Positions 2,761 to 51,523 of a stretch of DNA of 64,000 nucleotides are shown piece after piece (position 1 is the first letter of the stretch; each line of letters starts with the position of its first letter). The notes below the pieces were generated by a model, which worked only from the letters and a program-made list of their open reading frames with translations, made no database searches and was not told the origin of the DNA. A program made the translations under genes and the position numbers. This DNA comes from an uncultured Thermoleophilia bacterium (lineage in GTDB: Bacteria; Actinomycetota; Thermoleophilia; UBA2241): NCBI GenBank assembly GCA_963705085.1, contig CAVPIV010000001.1:22443-86442 (forward strand). Direction: 5' to 3'.

Positions 2761-4009
2761 TCAGTCCCGCAGCAACCGCCCGAAGTAGTCCAGGTAGGCC
2801 GTCGCTCCCCGCTGGAGGGCGTCGGGCTCGAGGATGAGGCTCGCCGTGAAGAACGCCTCGCGTTCCATGTCGAAGAAGTACCCGGGCTGGCTCCAGAGGC
2901 CCTCCTCCCGCAGAAGCCCGAGGGCCAACTCCTCTTCGGACTGGAGCCGCGGCGACTCGATGATCGCCGTCCAGCCGCCGTGGCAGGTGAGTACGCGATG
3001 GGGCGAGTCGTCTTCCTCCAGGATGAGGCGGAGCCGGGCGATGTTCTCTCTCAGCCTCCGCCGGCAACGCTCCGCGAAGTCTGTCGCTGAGGGCAGCAGC
3101 GTGGGCAGGGCGTTCATGATGGGCGTCCCCGCCGAGAGATAGGCGTCGGCGATGATCTCGAGCCGGTCTTCGGCTTCACGGAGTTCACGCTCCGGGCCCG
3201 ACGAGACGATCCAGCCGAGCTTCATCTGCGGCAGCCCGAGGCGCTTTGAGAGCCCGTCGAGGGCGAAGCAGAGGGTTCGGCCTTCGCCGATGAAGGAGCG
3301 ACGCACCGGCGATCGGCCGCCGGCGGCCGGTGGCGCTTCGCCGAGCTCGACCGGGAAGTCGTAGAAGACCTCGTCGGCGATGATGCGCGCAGCCGTACCG
3401 GACGCAGAGATCGACGAGGGCCTCGCGCTCTGCGTCACCCACGTATGAGCCTGTCGGGTTGCCGGGATTGATGACGACGAGGGCGCGGGCTCGTCCCCGT
3501 GTCAGCGCCGCTTCGACGGAATCGAGATCGATACGCCAGCCGGCGGGATGAGCGTACGCCAGGCGATACGGGCGCGTCTCCACCCCTTCGAGGCCCGCGA
3601 GATACTCGAAGAGCGGGTAGCCGGGACTGGGCGCGACGATCGCCTCGCCCGGGTCGCAGAGCAGCTTGAAGAGCCAGCCATAGGCCTCGGAGGTCGACGC
3701 GCAGAGAAACACGTCGCGGGCGTCGACCGGCGACGCGTGACGTGGTTCTCGGCTCGCGCGAACGGCGCAGTCCTCGACGATCGCGTCCCTGGCGCGCCGC
3801 AGGCCCCGCGGGTCGGGCTCGTAGCGCACGTTCGCCGGGTCGGCGAGCAGGCTGAGCGCATGCTGCGCGGGGCCGAGTCCTACCAGCGTCGGGTTGCTCT
3901 CGGAGAAGTCGAGCACGGGGACGCCGCCGGCCCGCAGGTCCGCGCGCAGCTTCGCCAGGGCGTTGTCCGCCGCGGGCCAGGTCAGCCTGGCGGAGAAGGG
4001 GATGCGCAT
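2761..4009 (-). pseudogene. Class I/II PLP-dependent aminotransferase (AlaC-like), reading frame broken by a +/-1 shift near 3400-3430. Either a sequencing indel or a true frameshift.
   Basis: N part (ORF 3185-4009): MRIPFSARL...SESNPT...NPGNPTGSYV...REALVDLCVRYG. C part (ORF 2761-3438) resumes in another frame at ...ARIIADEVFYDF...CFALDGLSKRLGLPQMKLGWI (SxSK / PLP-Lys region). Confidence 0.6.
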
Positions 4010-4077
4010 GAGCTTACACTAGGGCGCCGGACGCCTGCCGGGCAAGCACGGCGCGGCCGGCCTCCCGACGCAGATCG

Positions 4078-40372: not shown

Positions 40373-42916
40373 TCACTCGTACTTGATTGCCTCGAGGATG
40401 CGCGTGCCCGCGGCGCGCCGGGCCGGAACCACCGCCGCGACCACACCCACGATCGCTGCCAGAACGAGGAACACGCCCAGCTGCATCCACGGCAGGCTGA
40501 AGACCAGCCCGTCGCCGCCGATCTGCGTCACGATGACGTAGCCCATGGCTACCCCGACCAGCGTGCCGAGCACGCCGCCGATCACGGACGTGATCACGCT
40601 CTCGTACCGCACCATCTGGCGGAGCTGCCGCCGGGCGGCGCCGATGGCGCGCAGCAAGCCGATCTCGCGCGTCCGCTCGTGGACGCTCAGCACCAGGGTG
40701 TTGACGATGCCGAAGATCGAGATGATCACGCTCATGGCGAGAAGGCCGTAGAACATGGTGAGGATCTGGTCGACCTGCTTGTTGATGGCGTCGAGATACT
40801 CGGTCCTGGTCTCGACCTTCTGCGTCGGGTAGTCGGCGAGCGCCTTCTGGACGGCGGCCTGGGCGCCGGCGCTGCCGTCGCTGCGCACCAGCGTCATGCC
40901 GGCGGCGGTCGGGACGTCCAGCTTCTCGAGCGTGTCGAGGTTGACCATCATGCCGGTGTAGGCCATCTGGTCGCGGTAGAAGCCGAGGACGGTGAGCTTG
41001 GCCGTCTTGCCGCTCTGGCTGGTGACCGTGATGGTCTCACCGGGGCCGACCTTGGCGGCGATCGGCGAACCGTCCTCGAGGATCACGTGCGTCGCGTCGA
41101 GCTTCGCGAAGAGGGCGTCGCTGCCGCCGCGCCGCCAGTCGTGACCCCAGACCCGGGTCCACACGGCGGGATCCACGGCGTTGGCGGTGATGATGCCTCC
41201 GCCCTTGACCTTGAACGACGTCCACGCGACGCCGGCTGCAGCTTCCACGCCGGGAACGTCCTCCAGGGCGCGCACGGTCGTCTGAGGCACGGTCAAGAAC
41301 GCCGAACGGTCCTGGACGACAAGGTCTGCGCGGGTGGACTCGCTGATCGCGCCGCTGAACGACCCCTTCATCGCCTGGGCGAACACCGCGACGAAGACGA
41401 CCATGGCGAGGCCGATCATGAGTGCCGCCGCAGTCGCGGCCGTGCGGCTCGGGTTGCGGCCGGCGTTGTCGCGCGCCAGACGGCCGCTGGTGGGCGCCAG
41501 CTTCTCCAGCGGCCAGCCGATGATCCTGCTCGCCGGCCGGACGACGAACTTGGCCAGCATGGCGATGGCGACGAAGAGCAACAAAGCGCCGAGACCCATG
41601 AACAGCAGGCGGCCGTTGGTCCCGCCGTCGGCGAAGATGCCGTAGGCGAGGGAGCCGCCGCCCAGGACTGCCACGGCCACGGCGAAGGCCGTGCTGAACT
41701 TCGCGAAGCGCGTCGGCGGCAGCGTCGCGCCCTCCTGGAGGGCCGCCACCGGCGGCACGCGCGTAGCGCGCAGGGCCGGGGTCAGCGCCGACAGGAGGGT
41801 GACGCCCACGCCGACGAGCACCGCGATGAGGACGGTGCGGGGTTCGAGGGCGATGCCCGCGGTCGGGATGTCGGCCCCGACGGCCTTGAAGAGCGTGTTG
41901 ATGCCCTTGGCGACGCCGAGGCCGGCGACGATGCCGACGGCCGAAGCCAGCACGCCCAGCGTAAGCGCCTCGGCGACCACCGATGTGAGCACCTGGCGGC
42001 GACTGGCGCCGAGAGCGCGCAGCATCGCGAACTCGCGGCGGCGCTGCGCGACGGTGATGTTGAAGGCGTTGAAGATGATGAAGGCGCCGACGAAGACGGA
42101 GACGCCGGCGAACGCCAGGAGAACGGGCGTGAGGAAGGAGCCGATCGCGTCGGTCGTCTCGGCGGTCCGGTCGGCGGCAGCCTGCTCGCCCGTCTTGACG
42201 CTGACGCCGGCCGGCATGGCGGCCTTCACGTCGGCGGCGAGCTGATTCGGCGTCACGCCCGGATCGGCGGAGATGGAGATGCCGCTGAGCCTTCTGGGCT
42301 CGCCGCCCCAGCGCTGCACGTCCTGCAGGCGGCCGGCCACGACGATGGTGCCCCCCAGGGACACGGAATCGCCCCACTCGAAGACGCCGGCGACCTTGAC
42401 CTCCTGGAGGCCGGCCGGGGCAGCGACGGTGAAGGTGTCGCCGGGCTCGAGCCCGGCCTTGTCGGCAAAGCTCCTGATGATCGAGACCTCGTTGCGTCCC
42501 CGGATCTCACGGCCGGCGACCAGGGTGGCCTGGTTGAAGGGCTCGCCCAGGTCAGTCGTGAGCAGTGTGGGGGCGCCGCCAGACTCGACGGCCTTGCCGT
42601 CGACGATCGCGGCGCCCATCGTCTCGTAGGCGCCGGCGGCCCTGTCGACGCCGGGCACTGCCAGCACCCGTGCGACGAGGTCGTCGTTCAGCGTCTGGGC
42701 CGCATCGTTCTCGAGGCTGGTGAACGAGCGTGTCGGCTCGACCTGCACAGCCGTGCCCTTGAGCGAGGTCTCGATGATGTTGGCGAACCCGTTGTCGATC
42801 TGGTCGGTCAGTACGTACGTGCCGGTGATCATCGCCACGCCCAGCAGGATGGCGAGGAGCGTGAGGATGGTCCGGAGTGGCCGGCTGGCCAGGCTGCGGA
42901 AGGCGAGGCGGGTCAT
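40373..42916 (-). CDS. ABC transporter permease, FtsX-like / MacB-type (duplicated 4+4 TM with large extracytoplasmic domains)
   Basis: 847 aa; two FtsX-like modules; ATGA overlap with the upstream ATPase. Confidence 0.85.
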
Positions 42917-43752
42917 TGGGCCACCTCGAGATTCTTGATGGTGTCGTAGATGGCGTCGCGGGTCATCCGGTCCTCGTCCAGCTCGACGCGGCCGTCCTTG
43001 AGGAAGACGACGCGGTCGGCGATGCTCGCCGCGTTGGCGTCGTGGGTGACCATGATCACGGTCTGGCCGAACTCGTCGACGCTGCGGCGGAGCAGGTCGA
43101 GGACCTCGCCGCCGGTGCGGGAGTCGAGGTTACCGGTGGGCTCGTCGGCGAAGAGAACGGCCGGCCTGGTGATGAGGGCGCGGGCGACGGCGACGCGCTG
43201 CTGCTGCCCGCCGGAGAGCTCGGCCGGACGGTGCGTCAGGCGGTCCTGCAGGCCGACGGCCTCGATGACGGTCCGCCGCCAGGCCTCGTCCGCCCTGCGG
43301 CGAGCGAGCGAGAGCGGCAGGACGATGTTCTCGTCGGCGGTCAGTGTCGCCAGCAGGTTGAAGCTCTGGAAGATGAAGCCGATCTTGTCGCGGCGGAGCT
43401 GCGTGAGCCGCTTCTCCTTGAGCCGGGTGATCTCGGTGCCGTCGATCCAGACCTGGCCGTCGGTGGGCTGATCGAGACCGGCGAGGATGTGCATGAGCGT
43501 ACTCTTGCCGGAGCCCGACGGCCCCATGATGGCCGTCAGCCGGCCCTCGGCGAAGGCGGCGTCGACGCCGCGCAGGGCGTGCACGACGGCGTCGCCTTTG
43601 CCGTAGACGCGGCTGAGACCGCGAGCTGTGACGACGGCGGGCTGTTCCGGCATGCCGACGCCGGTCAGCTCGCGGGCGAATTGGCGCTCGAGCTTGGCGA
43701 GGGTCTCGTTCCGCTCGACGTCTTCGCGTTCTCTGATGATAGTCGGCTCCAT
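42913..43752 (-). CDS. ABC transporter ATP-binding protein (MacB/LolD type)
   Basis: [36 protein letters not shown]; GGAAGGGGA SD. Confidence 0.9.
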
Positions 43753-44040
43753 GGTCTGTCCCCTTCCGAGTTGACGGTAGGGACAGGCTACGAGGGAACC
43801 GCCGTCGGCGAGTCTCCCGGCGGTGGTGAATTGACCAGCGCTCGAGAGGGGTATTCGTCGAGCTGCGGGCCACCCGAGGGTGACCAGCGGCTACTCCCCC
43901 GGGAGGACGGCGGCCCCCCGGGGGGTAGTACCCTGACCTCGTGAGAGGACTGGTCTGGGAATCCGTCGTGGCCGTGGCCGGCCGCCGGCGCCCCGCTGCC
44001 CCGGCGAGGGTATTCTGTCTGCGACAGGAGAGGAGGCCCC

Positions 44041-44940: not shown

Positions 44941-45226
44941 TCGGTGTCCGCCTCCCGCGTCGAGCTCCCGGACGCCAGTGTGCCAGAGACGCCCCGCACG
45001 GGCCCGCGGTTCGTGACAGATGGCCGTTGCTCAGAGCGCCGTCCGGTGCCGTGCTCACCAGCCAGACAGGGCCACGGCCAGGCGGGGCGTCGGTTCCGTG
45101 CTTCAGCGGCCGGCATGAGCGCAGCCGTCGAGTGGGTACAGTGTGATGGGGTCTGGATGCGGATAGCTCAGGTGCCGGGTTTTGCGTCGGCTTCCGCCGG
45201 GGCCTACAAACGGAGAAGGGGGTTTG

Positions 45227-46195
45227 GTGAGCACAAACGACGGTGACCGCAGTATCGTCGCCGAGGGGGTGCGCCGCGATTTCGGCGATCTTCGCGCTCT
45301 TGATGGTGTCGACCTCGAAGTACCCGGCGGCCAGATCTTCGGTTTCCTGGGACCCAACGGCGCCGGCAAGTCCACCCTCGTCAAGATCCTGACCACGATC
45401 CTCGATCCGACCTCCGGTCGGGCTGTCGTGGCCGGCCACGACGTCCTTCGGCAGGGAGGCAAGGTCCGTGCGGCGATAGGCGTCGCACTGCAGGACGTTG
45501 GCCTGGATCCCCTGATGACGTCGCGCGAGTTGCTGATGCTGCAGGCCCAGCTCTTCGGGAGTAGCCGCAGCGAGTCCCGCGCAACCGCAGAGCGTCTGCT
45601 GGTGACCGTCGGCCTCGACGACGTTGCTCCGAAGAAGCGCACGGGCTCGTACTCGGGCGGCATGAAGCGACGGCTGGATCTCGCGCTGGCGCTCGTGCAC
45701 GACCCTCGCATTCTCTTCCTCGACGAGCCGACGACAGGCCTCGACCCAGTAAGCCGGGCGGCGATCTGGGAGGAAGTGCGCCGCCTGAACAGGGAGCATG
45801 GGATGACCATCTTCCTCACCACGCAGTACCTGGAAGAGGCGGACCGCCTCGCCGACGAGGTAGCCATCATCAGCGGAGGGCGCATTGTCGCGAGCGGAAC
45901 GCCGGCCGAGCTCAAACGACAGGTCGGCGAGGAAGTCGTCCTGCTGCAGTTCGCCTCGCCCGAGGAGGCCCGGCGAGCCTCGAGCGCGCTCGCCGTGCTG
46001 GCTCCGAACCGGCAGGTCTCGCAGAGCGACGTCAGGCTCTACTTCAATCGTGCCGCTGAGAACCTGCCCGAGCTGGTACGCGCGCTCGACGTGGCGGCCG
46101 TGCGCGCGCAGGGCCTGCAGATCGAGCAGCCCAGTCTCGACGACGTGTTCCTGAGAGTGACCGGCGAAGCGCTGGGCCAGAAGGAGACAGCATGA
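45227..46195 (+). CDS. ABC transporter ATP-binding protein (DrrA-like)
   Basis: [31 protein letters not shown]; GTG after GGAGAAGGGGG. Confidence 0.9.
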   Translation: MSTNDGDRSIVAEGVRRDFGDLRALDGVDLEVPGGQIFGFLGPNGAGKSTLVKILTTILDPTSGRAVVAGHDVLRQGGKVRAAIGVALQDVGLDPLMTSRELLMLQAQLFGSSRSESRATAERLLVTVGLDDVAPKKRTGSYSGGMKRRLDLALALVHDPRILFLDEPTTGLDPVSRAAIWEEVRRLNREHGMTIFLTTQYLEEADRLADEVAIISGGRIVASGTPAELKRQVGEEVVLLQFASPEEARRASSALAVLAPNRQVSQSDVRLYFNRAAENLPELVRALDVAAVRAQGLQIEQPSLDDVFLRVTGEALGQKETA

Positions 46196-46956
46196 ACGAC
46201 ATCTTCCTGCTCATCGTGCGCGCGATGCGCGACACCCTGCGTCAGCCCGCGTCGGTCATCCCGAACATCGCGATCAGCGTGTTCTTCCTGTTCGTGTACG
46301 ACGCCGGGCTCTCGTCCGTCTCGGACCTTCCGGGGTTCGTCGGCTCCTACCTGGGCTTCATTCTGCCGGTGGCGCTCGTGTCGGCGGCCGTCGGCGGCGC
46401 GGGACTCGCGGGTCAGCTCCTCATCAAGGACATCGAGAACGGCTACTTCACGAAGCTTCTGCTGACGCCGACGCGCCGGCTGGCGATGATCTGGGGTCCG
46501 ATGGTGGCCAGCGCCCTCATCCTCACCGCCCAGGTGGTCCTGGTGATGGTGCTGGCGCTGGCCCTGGGTCTCGACGTGGCGACGGGACCGCTGGGGTTTG
46601 GGCTCGTCGTCGCTCTCGCGTTTCTCTGGGGCATGGCGTTCGCCGGCTACGCCGCTTTCGTGGCGCTACGGACCAAGAACGCCGCCGCGACCCAGGCCGC
46701 GACCTTCGCCTTCTTCCCGCTGATCTTCCTCTCATTCACGTTCGTCCCGGAGGAGTACGTGACAACCCAGTGGCTGCGGGTGGCGGCCGCGATCAACCCG
46801 ACCACCTACGTGTTCGATGCGATGCGCTCGCTGCTCAACTCTGGCTGGGACACCACGTCGATCCTCGTCGGCTTCGCGGTTGCGCTGGGGTTCGCGACGC
46901 TGACGGGCGTCGGCGCCCTCTGGGCGGCGCGCAGCGCGACCAGGCTGTCGTCGTGA
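46192..46956 (+). CDS. ABC-2 family transporter permease
   Basis: Six-TM profile; ATGA overlap with the ATPase. Confidence 0.8.
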   Translation: MNDIFLLIVRAMRDTLRQPASVIPNIAISVFFLFVYDAGLSSVSDLPGFVGSYLGFILPVALVSAAVGGAGLAGQLLIKDIENGYFTKLLLTPTRRLAMIWGPMVASALILTAQVVLVMVLALALGLDVATGPLGFGLVVALAFLWGMAFAGYAAFVALRTKNAAATQAATFAFFPLIFLSFTFVPEEYVTTQWLRVAAAINPTTYVFDAMRSLLNSGWDTTSILVGFAVALGFATLTGVGALWAARSATRLSS

Positions 46957-47058
46957 GTCGCGTCGCTGCCTACGATGCTGTGCCGGTCCCCCTCATCGCC
47001 TGACCCGTCGCGTGAGGGAGCCGGTCGACGGTGCGCGCCCAGGCGGCGCAGCACCGCC

Positions 47059-47790
47059 ATGCTGGGCGCCTGCCCCTGGCTGCTCGTCGGCTTTGTTGTG
47101 CTGGCGTTGTCAGGAGCGACTGCCTGCGGCAGCAGGGAGCTGCAGTCTCTGGAGCGGACTCCGGCGCCGTCCTCGGAGAGTACTCCAGCGATCTCCCTCC
47201 CGCAGCCCCGGACGAGCGGCCCTCTCTCGCTCGAGGAAGCGCTCGCGGGTCGCCGGTCCGTGCGCTCGTTCGCGGAGCGGTCGCTCGGCCTCGCCCAGGT
47301 CGCTCAGCTCCTCTGGGCTGCGCAAGGCGTGACGGACGCCAGGACCGGCTATCGCGCCGCGCCGTCGGCCGGTGCGCTCTACCCACTCGAGGTCGTCCTC
47401 GCCGTCAAACGCGTGAGAGGTCTCACGCCGGGTGTCTACCGCTACGTCCCCGACGACCACGCGCTGCTTCCAGTACGAGTTGCGTCGCCGGCGCGAGAGC
47501 TCTCCGGCGCGGCGCACTCTCAAGCGGCCGTCGGTGAGGCGCCCGTTGTCCTCGTCCTCACCGCGGTCTACGAGAGGACGACGGCCAGGTACGGAGCGCG
47601 GGGCGAACGGTACGCCATCCTGGAGGCCGGGCACGCCGCTCAGAACGTCTATCTGCAGGCCGAGGCTCTCGAGCTCGGGACGGTAGCGATCGGGGCCTTC
47701 GACGATGAGGCTGTTCGGCGAGTGCTCGGACTGAAGGAACAGGAGCAGCCCCTGTATCTCATGCCGTGTGGGGAGCCTGCCCGGCGGTAG
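47059..47790 (+). CDS. SagB-type dehydrogenase / nitroreductase-fold protein with N-terminal signal peptide (lipoprotein-like)
   Basis: Signal peptide and Cys (LALSGATAC); SagB/ThcOx-type nitroreductase pattern (RRSVRSF...PSAGALYP...AILEAGHAAQNVYLQA). Confidence 0.7.
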   Translation: MLGACPWLLVGFVVLALSGATACGSRELQSLERTPAPSSESTPAISLPQPRTSGPLSLEEALAGRRSVRSFAERSLGLAQVAQLLWAAQGVTDARTGYRAAPSAGALYPLEVVLAVKRVRGLTPGVYRYVPDDHALLPVRVASPARELSGAAHSQAAVGEAPVVLVLTAVYERTTARYGARGERYAILEAGHAAQNVYLQAEALELGTVAIGAFDDEAVRRVLGLKEQEQPLYLMPCGEPARR

Positions 47791-47826
47791 CCGGCAGTGC
47801 CCCGCGCCGGCGGCTCATCTGGTACG

Positions 47827-47868
47827 GCCCGGGATTTGCGCGCCGAGAAGGCGCGCAAATCCCGGGCC
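47827..47868. terminator. Bidirectional intrinsic-terminator-like hairpin between convergent genes
   Basis: Perfect 18-bp inverted repeat GCCCGGGATTTGCGCGCC-gagaag-GGCGCGCAAATCCCGGGC. Confidence 0.6.
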
Positions 47869-47873
47869 CGTGA

Positions 47874-50642
47874 TCAGCCGGCTGCCTCGCAGGCAACGCA
47901 GCGTGCCGTGCCGGCCGCCGCCGCTTCCCCTTCGGCCGGCGGCTCCTTGTCCACCCGCACCGCACAGACCTTGAACTCCGCCGTCTTGGTGACAGGGTCG
48001 CCGGCCGAGTTGGTGAGCTCGTTGACCGGTGACTCCTTGTAGTGGAGCGTCATGAACATCGTGCCGGTGGGCACGCGGTCAGTAACACTGACCCGCGTGC
48101 GGATCGAACCGCGCCGCGAGGTGACGCGCACCATCTCGCCGTCGGCGACGCCGAGGCGCCGCGCGTCGGCCGGGCTGAGCTCGGCCAGCTCATGCGGGCG
48201 CAGCCACTCGAGGTTCTCGCAGTGCCGAGTCATCACGTTGTGGTGGTAGAGCATCCGTCCGGTCGTGAGGAGCAGCGGGTACTCCTCGTCGGTGAGCTCG
48301 GCGGGCTCCTGGAACGGGATACCCTGCAGGAGCCCCTTGCCGCGCGTGAACTTGCCCTTGTGCAGGTACTGGGTGCCCGGATGATCCTCGGTCGGGCAGG
48401 GCCACTGCAGCCCGACCGTCCCGAGACGCTCGTACGTCATGCCGGCGTACTGTGGGATGACGGTGCGCATCTCCTCGAAGACCTCCTCGGGACTCGTGAA
48501 CGGCATCGGGTAGCCGAGACGGGTAGCGAGGTCGAGGATGATCTGCCAGTCCTCACGGCACTGGCCTGGGGGCTCAACGGCCTTGCGGACACGTTGTACG
48601 CGACGTTCAGTGTTGGTGAAGGTGCCGTCCTTCTCCGCGTAGCAGGAGGACGGCAGGAAGACGTCGGCGTACTTGGCCGTCTCGGACATGAGCATGTTCT
48701 GGCAGACGAGGAAGTCGAGGCTCTCCATCGCCTTGCGCACGTGGTTGGCGTCGGCGTCGGTGAGCACGGGGTCCTCACCCATGATGAACATGGCCTTGAG
48801 GTCGCCAGCTACTGCGGCGTCGAACATCTCCGGTATGCGCAGGCCGATCTTCTCGGGCATGGACACGCCGTAGGCGGCCGAGAACCTGGCCTTGGCCGCC
48901 TCGTCCAGCACGCTCGGGTACCCCGGGAACGAGTTGGGGAGGGCGCCTACGTCGCACGAACCTTGCACGTTGTTCTGGCCGCGTAGCGGGTTGATGCCGG
49001 CGAACTCGATGCCGATGTGGCCGGTGATCATGGCCAGGTTGGCGAGGTTCATGACGTTGGCAGTACCGACGGTGTGTTCCGTGATGCCAAGCGTGTAGAA
49101 GATGCCCGCCCGCCGCGTCGTGGCGTAGAGCTCGGCCGCCGCGACAATCGTCGCGGCGGGCACGCCCGTGATCGCCGCGGCCTTCTCGGCGGTGAAGTCC
49201 TTGATCGTCTCCCAGAGGTCGTCGAACCCCTCGCAGCGCTCCTCGATGTAGGCCACGTCGTGCCAGCCGTTGCTGATGATCGTGTGGAGGATGCCGTCGA
49301 TGAGCGCGTTGTCGGTGCCTGCCTTGAGGCGCAGCCAGAGGTGGGAGTGCTCCGCCAGCTCGGTGCGTCGCGGGTCGGCGACGATGAGCTTGGCGCCGTT
49401 CTGTGCGGCGCGCTTCATCTTGTTGCCGATGATCGGGTGCGCCTCGGTGGCGTTGGATCCGATGATGAAGAGGACGTCGTTGTGCTCGATCTCGCCGATG
49501 GAGTTGCTCATGGCGCCTGAACCCAGTGTGGCGGCCAGACCGGCCACCGTTGGCGCGTGTCAGGTGCGGGCGCAGTGATCGATGCTGTTCGTGTTCAGGC
49601 CCGCCCGCGTGAGGCGCTGGAGCAGGTAGTTCTCCTCGTTCGTGCAGCGGGCCGAGCCGAGCACGCCGATCGCCATGGCGGAGTGCTTCTCCTTGATGGC
49701 GAGCAGCCGCTCGGCGATCAGGTCAAGAGCTTCGTCCCACGAAGCCTCCTCGAAGACCCCGTCACGCTTGATCAGGGGCGTCGTGATGCGGTCGGGGCTG
49801 GTGATGACGTCGGTGTGGAACCGGCCCTTGACGCACAGGGAGCCCTGGTTGACCGGGGCGTCGTAGGCGGCGGTGACGCCGACCACCTTGCCGTCGGCGA
49901 CGTTCAGGTCGAAGTTGCAGCCGACGCCACAGAAGGGGCAGGTGGTGCGCACTTTGCTGCGGTCCCACGTGCGGGTGCCCTTGAGCTGCTTGTTGATGAT
50001 GGCCCCGCTCGGGCAGATGTCAATGCACTGGCCGCAGAAGCGGCAGAACGAAATGTCGAGCGGGCGGTCGAAGGGTCCGGCCACCAAGGAGTCGAAACCA
50101 CGTCGGGTGACGCCGATGGCATCGGTGACCTGCACCTCGTGGCAGACACGGACGCATTTGCCGCAGAGGATGCACTTGTTCATGTCGCGCTCGATCATCG
50201 GGTTCTCGGACTCGATGGGGAGCGCCTGCCTTAGGGCGGGGAAGCTGCTGCCCTTGACGCCGTACCGGTAGCAGGTGTCCTGCAAGGCGCAGGCGCCAGC
50301 CTGCTCGCAGGTCAAGCAATCAAGGGGGTGATCGGCGAGGAGTAGATCGAGGATCATGCGGCGGGTCGAGACGACGGCCTCCGACTCGGTCTCGATGACC
50401 ATGCCGTCGTGGAGCGGGGTACTGCAGGACGCGACGAGATCGCGACGGCCCTCGACCTCGACGACGCACAGCCGGCAGGCGGCGACGGGGCGCAGGGTCT
50501 CATCGTGACAGAGTGTCGGGATATCGATCCCCAGGTCGCGGGCCGCCTCGAGGATGGTGGTGCCGAGGGGCACGTGGACGACGTGCCCGTCGATCCTTGC
50601 ATGGACAGTCGCGAGGACCTCCTCGTCTGACGTGCCGGTCAT
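47874..50642 (-). CDS. fdhF: Formate dehydrogenase alpha subunit, selenocysteine-containing (N-terminal 2Fe-2S/4Fe-4S domains plus Mo-bisPGD domain). The in-frame TGA at 49560-49562 (plus coordinates) encodes Sec.
   Basis: ORFs 49560-50717 and 47874-49547 are one frame: ...[30 protein letters not shown] aligns with E. coli FdhF ...CCARV-U-HGPSVAGLHQSVGNGAMSNA. Start at ATG 50642 with GGAAGGGAG SD. Confidence 0.9.
49520..49559 (-). other. Bacterial SECIS-like stem-loop immediately 3' of the UGA
   Basis: mRNA: UGA-CACGCGCCAAC (11 nt) then GGUGGCC-GGUCU-GGCCGCC. Spacing, GGU stem start and GGUCU apical loop mirror the E. coli fdhF SECIS. Confidence 0.6.
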
Positions 50643-50785
50643 GCCGCTCCCTTCCGTGGCTGCTCCTGAGCGCGAGAGCCGCTGGTTCTCGCGCTGAAAG
50701 GAGGAGTGAGTGTACACCGTGCGCGGCGAGGTGAATAGGTCTGCCCCGCTCCGGTATCCCCGGAGAGCCGGCGAGAGGCCATCTT

Positions 50786-51523
50786 GTGGACCCGTCGCGG
50801 GCCGTGTACCGTGCCGTCGTGCCCCGTCTCCTCGCCCAGCACGAGCACCCGTGGCGGGTGTCGCTCGCGGATGCCGCCGCGACCCAGACGCGCCTTGCCG
50901 CCGAGGTGCGCCTGCGGCCTGTGCCGGCGGCAGGCCCAGGGTCTCCGCGGCTCGCGGCCGGTGTCGACGCCGCCTACACGAAGGACCGCGCCCACGCCTG
51001 GGCGGGGGCGGTCGTCATGGACTCGCGCTTCAGAGCGGTGTCGTCCGTCGTCGTGGAGGGCGAGCCAGATCTCGAGTATGCGCCCGGCTACCTCGCGTTC
51101 CGTGAGGGGCGGCTCGCCGTGGAGGCTCTCTGCGCTTTGGACGTCGATCCCGACGTGGTCTTCCTCGACGGCCACGGCGTGGTTCATGCTCGGGGCTGCG
51201 GTCTCGCCTCGCACATCGGCGTGCTCCTCGGGCTGCCGACGATCGGGGCGCCCAAGGCGCCGTTCCACGCCATTGATCATCAGCCGGGTCCGCGGCGCGG
51301 CGACTACTACATCCTCAGCAAGGAGTGGGGCGCCCAAGGCGCGTCGCTCCGGCTGAAGGCCGGCGTCAAGCCTGTCTACGTCTCACCGGGCAACCTGGTC
51401 GATCTCGAGAGCGCGATTGCGCTCGCTCTCGCATGGTCCAGCGGGCGCCGGCGCGTGCCGGAGCCGTTGGCGGCCGCTCACACGCTGTCAGTGCGGGCCC
51501 GCAGTCGCGCCCTGGGCCTCTGA
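50786..51523 (+). CDS. nfi: Endonuclease V
   Basis: AGVDAAYT...GYLAFREG...VVFLDGHGVVHARGCGLASHIGVLLGLPTIGAPK; GAGAGG SD before GTG. Confidence 0.85.
   Translation: MDPSRAVYRAVVPRLLAQHEHPWRVSLADAAATQTRLAAEVRLRPVPAAGPGSPRLAAGVDAAYTKDRAHAWAGAVVMDSRFRAVSSVVVEGEPDLEYAPGYLAFREGRLAVEALCALDVDPDVVFLDGHGVVHARGCGLASHIGVLLGLPTIGAPKAPFHAIDHQPGPRRGDYYILSKEWGAQGASLRLKAGVKPVYVSPGNLVDLESAIALALAWSSGRRRVPEPLAAAHTLSVRARSRALGL

Follow-up and report, generated by a model that had tools for sequence, protein, structure and literature searches.

The locus described here lies on the minus strand of a 64,000-nucleotide (nt) stretch of contig CAVPIV010000001.1 (GenBank assembly GCA_963705085.1) from an uncultured Thermoleophilia bacterium; this whole 64-kb stretch is referred to below as the window. 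The locus holds fdhA, which encodes a putative selenocysteine (Sec)-containing formate dehydrogenase (FDH) alpha subunit and which, on ordinary decoding, is cut in two by one in-frame TGA. Taken together, the sequence evidence indicates that the region is very probably a single intact gene, decoded with Sec at this TGA through a functional selenocysteine insertion sequence (SECIS). The gene and its parts are as follows.

47874..50642, minus strand: fdhA coding sequence, from ATG at 50642 to the stop TGA at 47876-47874 (by translation)
50647..50655, minus strand: Shine-Dalgarno-like GGAAGGGAG, 4 nt 5' of the ATG at 50642 (read from the sequence)
49959..50642, minus strand: NuoG-like N-terminal electron-transfer module, residues 1-228 (Pfam domains and Cys/His positions)
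49560..49562, minus strand: in-frame UGA, codon 361, read as Sec and predicted to be a Mo/W ligand (alignment to FdhH U140 and FdsA C386)
49530..49548, minus strand: predicted SECIS apical stem-loop GGUGGCC-GGUCU-GGCCGCC, predicted to bind SelB (fold and covariation)
49507..49565, minus strand: whole SECIS-like segment, with a possible lower helix (Rfam SECIS_3 match)

Reading frame and encoded protein

The fdhA frame comprises 923 codons (922 plus the stop), and its sole internal stop is the TGA at 49562-49560, which is codon 361. The open reading frame (ORF) listing splits it into 49560..50717 (385 amino acids, aa) and 47874..49547 (557 aa), both on the minus strand. An earlier reading of the letters alone, hereafter the original prediction, had described two minus-strand ORFs in one frame parted by the TGA at 49560-49562, and both ORFs and the single internal stop were recovered. 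The peptide immediately before the TGA is NSIDHCART. The codons CAC GCG CCA ACG (49559-49548), which bridge the TGA and the GTG at 49547 that the ORF lister takes as a start, are open and in frame. At the 5' end of the gene, the start context GGAG-N-ATG is kept in 8 aligned relatives.

Genes in the window were called by GC content at third codon positions (GC3), and about 58 ORFs were scanned with Pfam. TGA is the commonest ordinary stop among the genes called (29/47); thus UGA is not reassigned in this code and a local recoding signal is required. A scan of the window gave no other in-frame-TGA selenoprotein candidate, the remaining matches being same-frame adjacent genes or antisense shadows.

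Codon 361 was entered as Cys in protein searches of the 922-aa product. Judged by its profile matches, fdhA encodes a NuoG-fused formate dehydrogenase alpha subunit of family TIGR01591. The product scores 841.5 bits against that profile (formate dehydrogenase subunit alpha; curated cutoff 666.25), with profile positions 1-672/672 falling on residues 233-897, and the next-best family, NasC, reaches 533.8 bits against a cutoff of 1100. Pfam domains follow in the order Fer2_4 (12-87), NADH-G_4Fe-4S_3 (94-131), Fer4_Nqo3 (148-215), Molybdop_Fe4S4 (230-280), Molybdopterin (285-707) and Molydop_binding (790-894). The N-terminal module carries motifs for one 2Fe-2S, one His/Cys3 4Fe-4S and two ferredoxin-type 4Fe-4S clusters, with ligands C45/C56/C59/C73, H105/C109/C112/C118, C157/C160/C163/C167 and C200/C203/C206/C210, and the proximal 4Fe-4S motif, within Molybdop_Fe4S4, is C235/C238/C242/C270. 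The predicted NuoG-fused architecture of about 920 aa with 2Fe-2S and 4Fe-4S Cys clusters is thus borne out at 922 aa, with all ligands present. FdhA would be cytoplasmic, since no twin-arginine leader can be read from its sequence.

The best solved relatives are 9wxb_B and 6tg9_A (Rhodobacter capsulatus), full-length FdsA/FdhA enzymes matched at E values of ~1e-228 to 1e-230; HDCR FdhF, F420-dependent FDH and E. coli FdhH rank after them. Residues U361, H362 and R554 align with U140, H141 and R333 of E. coli FdhH (K-12 fdhF; 44% identity over 696 residues), and the same columns hold C386, H387 and R587 in the alignment with R. capsulatus FdsA. The FdhF peptide quoted in the original prediction, CCARV-U-HGPSVAGLHQSVGNGAMSNA, is correct against K-12 fdhF and sets U361 opposite U140; the assignment to the FDH alpha family also stands, the profile score and the FdhF alignment being the two checks that had been proposed for it.

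Additional observations concern the two ends of the gene. Upstream, at 50709-50718 on the minus strand, lies the motif GTGTACACTC, in place of which most relatives have TTGTACACTC; the motif includes TACACT, a -10-like hexamer, and recurs 5' of Thermoleophilia fdhA loci at variable distance. The 5' leader (50667-50693, minus strand) holds a perfect 9-bp inverted repeat, AGCGCGAGA-N9-TCTCGCGCT. An Rfam search gave no molybdenum cofactor (Moco) riboswitch 5' of fdhA in the window. In Syntrophomonas wolfei subsp. methylbutyratica (locus L015, 9227-9838) three tandem Moco/tungsten riboswitches (RF01055; 69.6, 54.3 and 49.4 bits) stand directly 5' of a Sec-fdhA. The C-terminal tail of FdhA (window 47877-47951, residues ~898-922) ends in a CxxC motif, ARCVACEAAG, which is common only to the closest relative, metagenome contig L082 (SRCRACEAAG); the remaining Thermoleophilia orthologues have tails that vary and contain no Cys.

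The UGA and its downstream stem-loop among relatives

Loci of relatives were collected by a scan of GTDB species genomes, which returned 80 loci. The 12 closest belong to metagenome-assembled genomes (MAGs) of uncultured Thermoleophilia/Actinomycetes with 74-83% aa identity, and the closest Thermoleophilia genome FdhA has 83% identity. TGA stands at the equivalent of codon 361 in 12/12 of the closest Thermoleophilia genome loci, as well as in the JGI metagenome contig L082 (92% identity, the closest metagenome relative) and in a further contig, L083. Over all loci, the 74 distinct homologous sites divide into 52 with TGA and 22 with TGC/TGT. Public protein records reflect the interruption: the C-terminal half of the window FdhA is an entry of its own (P0007, 545 aa, 100%), the closest database relatives (P0010, P0022, P0049, P0065 and P0068; 85-92% identity) are broken at the same place, and the gene of L082 is called as pieces of 360 and 555 aa.

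Selection acts on both sides of the UGA. By the Nei-Gojobori method, with the window set against six relatives, the ratio of nonsynonymous to synonymous divergence (dN/dS) is 0.17-0.36 upstream and 0.10-0.36 downstream, at synonymous divergences (dS) of 0.43-0.79; the downstream values argue that the half 3' of the UGA is translated. The same follows for codons 362-365 (H-A-P-T), which lie between the UGA and any restart codon, because their amino acids are conserved and only third positions vary.

One pair of contigs bears on the Sec/Cys alternation. L081 (PMKK01000039.1, GCA_003157715.1) and L083, an ENA reassembly of the same sample, differ at the Sec codon (both 637-2035), with TGC (Cys, 912-aa call) in the former and TGA (Sec) in the latter. 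Their 12,770-bp segments are identical save for 153 substitutions, all within about 900-1,400 bp inside fdhA, and the Cys allele of L081 retains a perfect GUCGCC-GGUCU-GGCGAC hairpin. Either a recombination patch exchanging Sec and Cys alleles in one population or a two-strain assembly chimera would account for the difference. The notion that a 'C' at the Sec position of full-length database proteins is a U-to-C conversion was rejected, the L081 DNA having a genuine TGC. In another relative, L008 (CAVUGS010000004.1; 12144-12702 and 14512-16290), fdhA and the downstream MacB gene each appear in several frame-shifted tblastn segments, consistent with assembly indel errors and not with biology.

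Exactly 11 nt 3' of the UGA begins a hairpin made up of GGUGGCC (49548-49542), GGUCU (49541-49537) and GGCCGCC (49536-49530), which forms the core of both the minimum free energy (MFE) and centroid folds. Fold energy is no evidence for it, as is set out below, and comparative covariation was therefore used, on an alignment of 53 distinct TGA-bearing fdhA sequences, with 500 column shuffles and with registers slid by 1-3 columns. Over the 7-bp stem, 91.4% of cells are paired and the covariation comes to 0.335; the column shuffles give 0.117 +/- 0.013 (0/500 reach 0.335) and the slid registers <=0.096. Pair 27-39, between the third positions of a Val and an Ala codon, is G-C in 29 sequences, C-G in 11, A-U in 8 and U-A in 5, and pair 30-36 is C-G in 46, A-U in 5 and U-A in 2; neither shows a mismatch. 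Conservation does not generally extend to the outermost pair, 24-42, which in the window is G-C. The apical loop is GGUCU in 47/52 TGA-bearing sites. In the 22 Cys-codon homologues, which have nearly the same peptide, the stem is paired in 59% of cells and the loops are variable. A possible lower helix, CCUGA (49564-49560) with UCAGG (49520-49516), would hold the UGA itself and is present in the MFE and centroid folds; it lies beyond the covariation test because its 5' arm is invariant. The hairpin is thus predicted to be a SelB-type SECIS element, conserved in structure.

The best Rfam match of the segment is SECIS_3 (RF01989), at 35.4 bits and E 1.2e-6 in a 251-nt search, over model positions 1-59/59. 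The apical helix and the xGUCU loop of the model are aligned to the window; the window sequence does not make the model's lower helix, and non-canonical pairs are flagged.

Competing explanations and genomic neighbourhood

Several observations weigh against a Sec-decoded fdhA. The 66-nt segment with the UGA is no more stable than dinucleotide shuffles of itself (z = -0.15, at 70% GC), and the hairpin is without the bulged U that E. coli SelB uses. The hairpin also stays under the Rfam gathering scores, with 35.4 against 63 bits for SECIS_3 and 15.3 against 70 bits for SECIS_2 (RF01988), so that no match is reported in the window at gathering thresholds. E. coli fdhF, run as a control, reaches 87.1 bits on SECIS_2. 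The fdhA loci of Thermoleophilia, Nitrospira and Syntrophomonas likewise fall under the SECIS gathering scores, and failing SECIS_2 and SECIS_3 is no argument against SECIS function because those families are narrow. As the original prediction had stated, selA, selB and selD are absent from the 64-kb window, both by Pfam and by tblastn with E. coli SelA/SelB/SelD, and ARAGORN finds no tRNA in the window and no tRNA-Sec in 16 related loci; the same tblastn queries on 83 related loci gave nothing except a weak SelD-like match in a Syntrophomonas locus. No partner or maturation genes stand beside fdhA in the window or in the orthologue loci L022, L006 and L001. In the 64 kb, the Pfam scan gave no NuoE/NuoF-like, FdhB, FdhD/FdsC, FdhE or MobA (Moco) gene, in agreement with the earlier statement that FDH partner subunits and fdhD/fdhE are not adjacent.

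Part of this evidence would suit a pseudogene, in which a Cys-type fdhA had been killed by a TGC/TGT-to-TGA nonsense mutation and the hairpin were an accident of V-A-G-L-A coding in a GC-rich genome: the fold is not above shuffles in stability, the window holds no sel genes, and Cys-codon homologues with the same peptide are still 59% paired. Decay of this kind is nevertheless highly improbable, since the TGA is retained in 12/12 Thermoleophilia and in the closest metagenome relative despite the synonymous divergence given above, the half 3' of the TGA is at least as constrained as the 5' half, and synonymous third positions covary to preserve the stem, with 0/53 mismatches at pair 27-39. Automated public gene calls (P0007, 545 aa; P0010, 555 aa, with a 360-aa partner) agree with another explanation, that the TGA is a true stop which separates an Fe-S N-terminal protein, ending at T360, from a catalytic fragment restarting at GTG 49547 or ATG 49517. 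Such a split would fall within the Molybdopterin domain and remove the residue that ligates the metal, the amino acids of codons 362-365, which bridge the TGA and the GTG, are conserved and the codons hence translated, and GTG 49547 has no preceding Shine-Dalgarno sequence; two separate proteins are accordingly very unlikely.

If near-cognate suppression, or a tRNA-Sec mis-loaded with Cys, had the UGA read as Cys or Trp, selenium would be dispensed with altogether. Compatible with such read-through are the lack of sel genes in the window, the functional Cys-type enzymes of the family, such as R. capsulatus FdsA with C386, and the near-identical contig in which a Cys allele keeps the hairpin. 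There is only a slight chance of this, given that a covarying SelB-type hairpin has no role in near-cognate suppression and that a code with TGA as its main stop is not reassigned. Decoding of codon 361 as Sec is thus the explanation that is preferred here; four independent lines favour it, namely retention of the TGA, the covarying stem, selection on the downstream half and a code in which TGA keeps its meaning as stop.

The genes on either side of fdhA, and the repeat that follows it, are as follows.

45182-46956, plus strand: ABC-2 permease and its ATPase, before the nitroreductase
46975-47790, plus strand: nitroreductase, downstream of fdhA and convergent with it
47826..47868, in the gap separating fdhA from the nitroreductase gene convergent with it: perfect inverted repeat of 19 bp, loop of 5 nt (fold)
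50786-51523, plus strand: endonuclease V, upstream of fdhA and divergent from it

Beyond endonuclease V lie genes for an M20 peptidase, a PK_C/PHP protein and DnaB. The 19-bp repeat folds at a dG of -60.8 kcal/mol (z = -5.83; 0/200 shuffles as stable), and a consensus terminator scan does not call it because it has no U/T tract. It is plausibly, and probably, a U-tail-less terminator for both fdhA and the nitroreductase. Of the bidirectional terminator originally proposed, the strong hairpin between convergent genes is thus present; the U tail is not, and the terminating function is a prediction.

In Thermoleophilia relatives, fdhA is flanked by unrelated genes, as in the window. Several of them keep an ABC ATPase and MacB/FtsX pair downstream of fdhA, 84-88% identical to window 40376-43890, and this identity with Thermoleophilia MAGs supports the placement of the host in that class. 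In an Actinomycetes relative (L006, 12707-14868), a ThiS/MoaD-like gene and a gene for aldehyde:ferredoxin oxidoreductase (AFOR_N/AFOR_C) come next after fdhA, all three in one direction. Aldehyde:ferredoxin oxidoreductases are a tungstopterin enzyme family, and this gene order may be a weak hint of tungsten and ferredoxin coupling in the L006 lineage. In two Thermoleophilia MAGs, ARAGORN reports unusually long 'tRNA-Gly' genes ~1-5 kb 5' of fdhA (L002:8819-8911, 93 nt, gcc; L022:4772-4858, 87 nt, acc); by anticodon they are not tRNA-Sec, and they may be false positives. Elsewhere in the window, overlapping minus-strand ORFs in different frames (2764-3501 and 3188-4018) match Pfam Aminotran_1_2 positions 180-338 and 59-180, so that an aminotransferase gene appears to be frameshifted near 3188-3501, either as a pseudogene or through sequencing error.

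Proposed decoding, significance and known systems

After the E. coli paradigm, the mRNA downstream of a ribosome at the UGA would fold into the stem-loop (11-nt spacer, 7-bp stem, GGUCU loop) and bind the elongation factor SelB carrying Sec-tRNA(Sec), whereby Sec would be inserted and termination avoided. By analogy with solved homologues, the active site would consist of Sec361, His362 and Arg554 at a bis-pyranopterin guanine dinucleotide (bisPGD) cofactor of Mo or W and would interconvert formate and CO2. Electrons would exit via five Fe-S clusters, the proximal 4Fe-4S and four more in the NuoG-like N-terminal module, to a partner presumably encoded elsewhere; this may be a carrier of the ferredoxin type or an NAD(P) module resembling NuoE/F or GltD. 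For FdhA we infer dependence on SelB, incorporation of selenium, the metal and the electron acceptor. The sequence of FdhA does not tell Mo from W. Clues to the acceptor diverge: close relatives carry annotations as NADP-dependent FdhA and GltD-like fusions, and the solved full-length homologues use NuoE/F-like partners. With neither partner nor maturation genes beside fdhA, any physiological electron acceptor named for it would be a guess.

A Sec-containing FdhA with a SelB-type hairpin is, on this sequence evidence, a textbook case that brings little new biology and is mainly an annotation correction. FdhA is the most widespread bacterial selenoprotein, found in 67/75 Sec-using organisms, and Actinobacteria are among the three selenoprotein-rich phyla (PMC1794560). 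Mycobacterium Sec-FDH genes are routinely mis-annotated, UGA being the usual actinobacterial stop (PMC13449736). Papers on selenocysteine in Thermoleophilia or Conexibacter were sought, and incidental co-mentions but no dedicated study turned up. Public gene calls break fdhA into pieces of 360 aa and 545-555 aa, a split that keeps the enzyme out of metabolic reconstructions of soil Thermoleophilia MAGs. It likewise conceals that the Thermoleophilia lineage must, if the gene is decoded as proposed, use selenocysteine. Of modest use are a clean cross-phylum covariation data set for the FdhA SECIS, the finding that the Rfam SECIS families miss these FdhA elements at gathering scores, and the bearing of an orphan fdhA context on the choice between diffusible ferredoxin and a distally encoded diaphorase as electron acceptor.

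Thermoleophilia are known mainly from aerobic soil heterotrophs. A speculative and rather doubtful extension is that they conserve a monocistronic, partner-less, NuoG-fused Sec-FdhA, which would act as a stand-alone formate:ferredoxin (or other carrier) oxidoreductase for formate scavenging or would dock on a distant diaphorase. If the ~900-bp patch around the active site by which the Sec and Cys alleles of L081 and L083 differ is real and not an assembly chimera, it would mean ongoing Sec/Cys exchange through recombination.

Among known systems, E. coli fdhF offers a close parallel for the recoding site. It reads UGA CAC GGC CCA UCG GUU GCA GGU CUG CAC C, and the window reads UGA CAC GCG CCA ACG GUG GCC GGU CUG GCC GCC. 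Both place GGUCUG in the same codon register after the UGA, and both encode the peptide H-x-P-[ST]-V-A-G-L codon for codon. The E. coli hairpin has a 6-bp stem, a bulged U and a GGUC tetraloop, whereas that of the window has an uninterrupted 7-bp stem and a GGUCU pentaloop. The E. coli-like SECIS of the original prediction thus holds for the 11-nt spacing and the GGUCUG register, but not for an identical geometry. The SelB-SECIS complexes of E. coli and Moorella make their main contacts through the G and U of the loop, two bases that the window hairpin also has.

At the protein level, E. coli FdhH (PDB 1AA6/1FDO) is without the 228-residue NuoG-like N-terminal module of the window FdhA, and its 44% identity spans the catalytic part. 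R. capsulatus FdsA (FdsGBAD; PDB 6TG9/6TGA) and 9wxb_B match the window FdhA over residues 11-907 and have the same architecture of 2Fe-2S, four 4Fe-4S and Mo-bisPGD, but FdsA-type enzymes carry Cys (C386) where the window has Sec. The operons of FdsA-type genes also encode FdsC/D and the NuoF/NuoE-like FdsB/FdsG, and no gene for any of these occurs in the window or beside the Thermoleophilia orthologues; of an FdsABG-type complex, the window thus has the NuoG-like alpha module but not adjacent FdsB, FdsG, FdsC/FdhD or FdsD genes. The closest named full-length sequence relatives are Firmicutes FdhA (the Gottschalkia acidurici 'NADP-dependent formate dehydrogenase FdhA', Desulfosporosinus, Syntrophomonas and Pelotomaculum), with 53-63% identity and the same length and domains. 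A fused GltD-like NAD(P)H module occurs in some relatives (P0013, 1378 aa) and is absent from the window FdhA. The fdhA genes of Syntrophomonas and Pelotomaculum have, as in the window, a TGA followed by a GGUCU hairpin.

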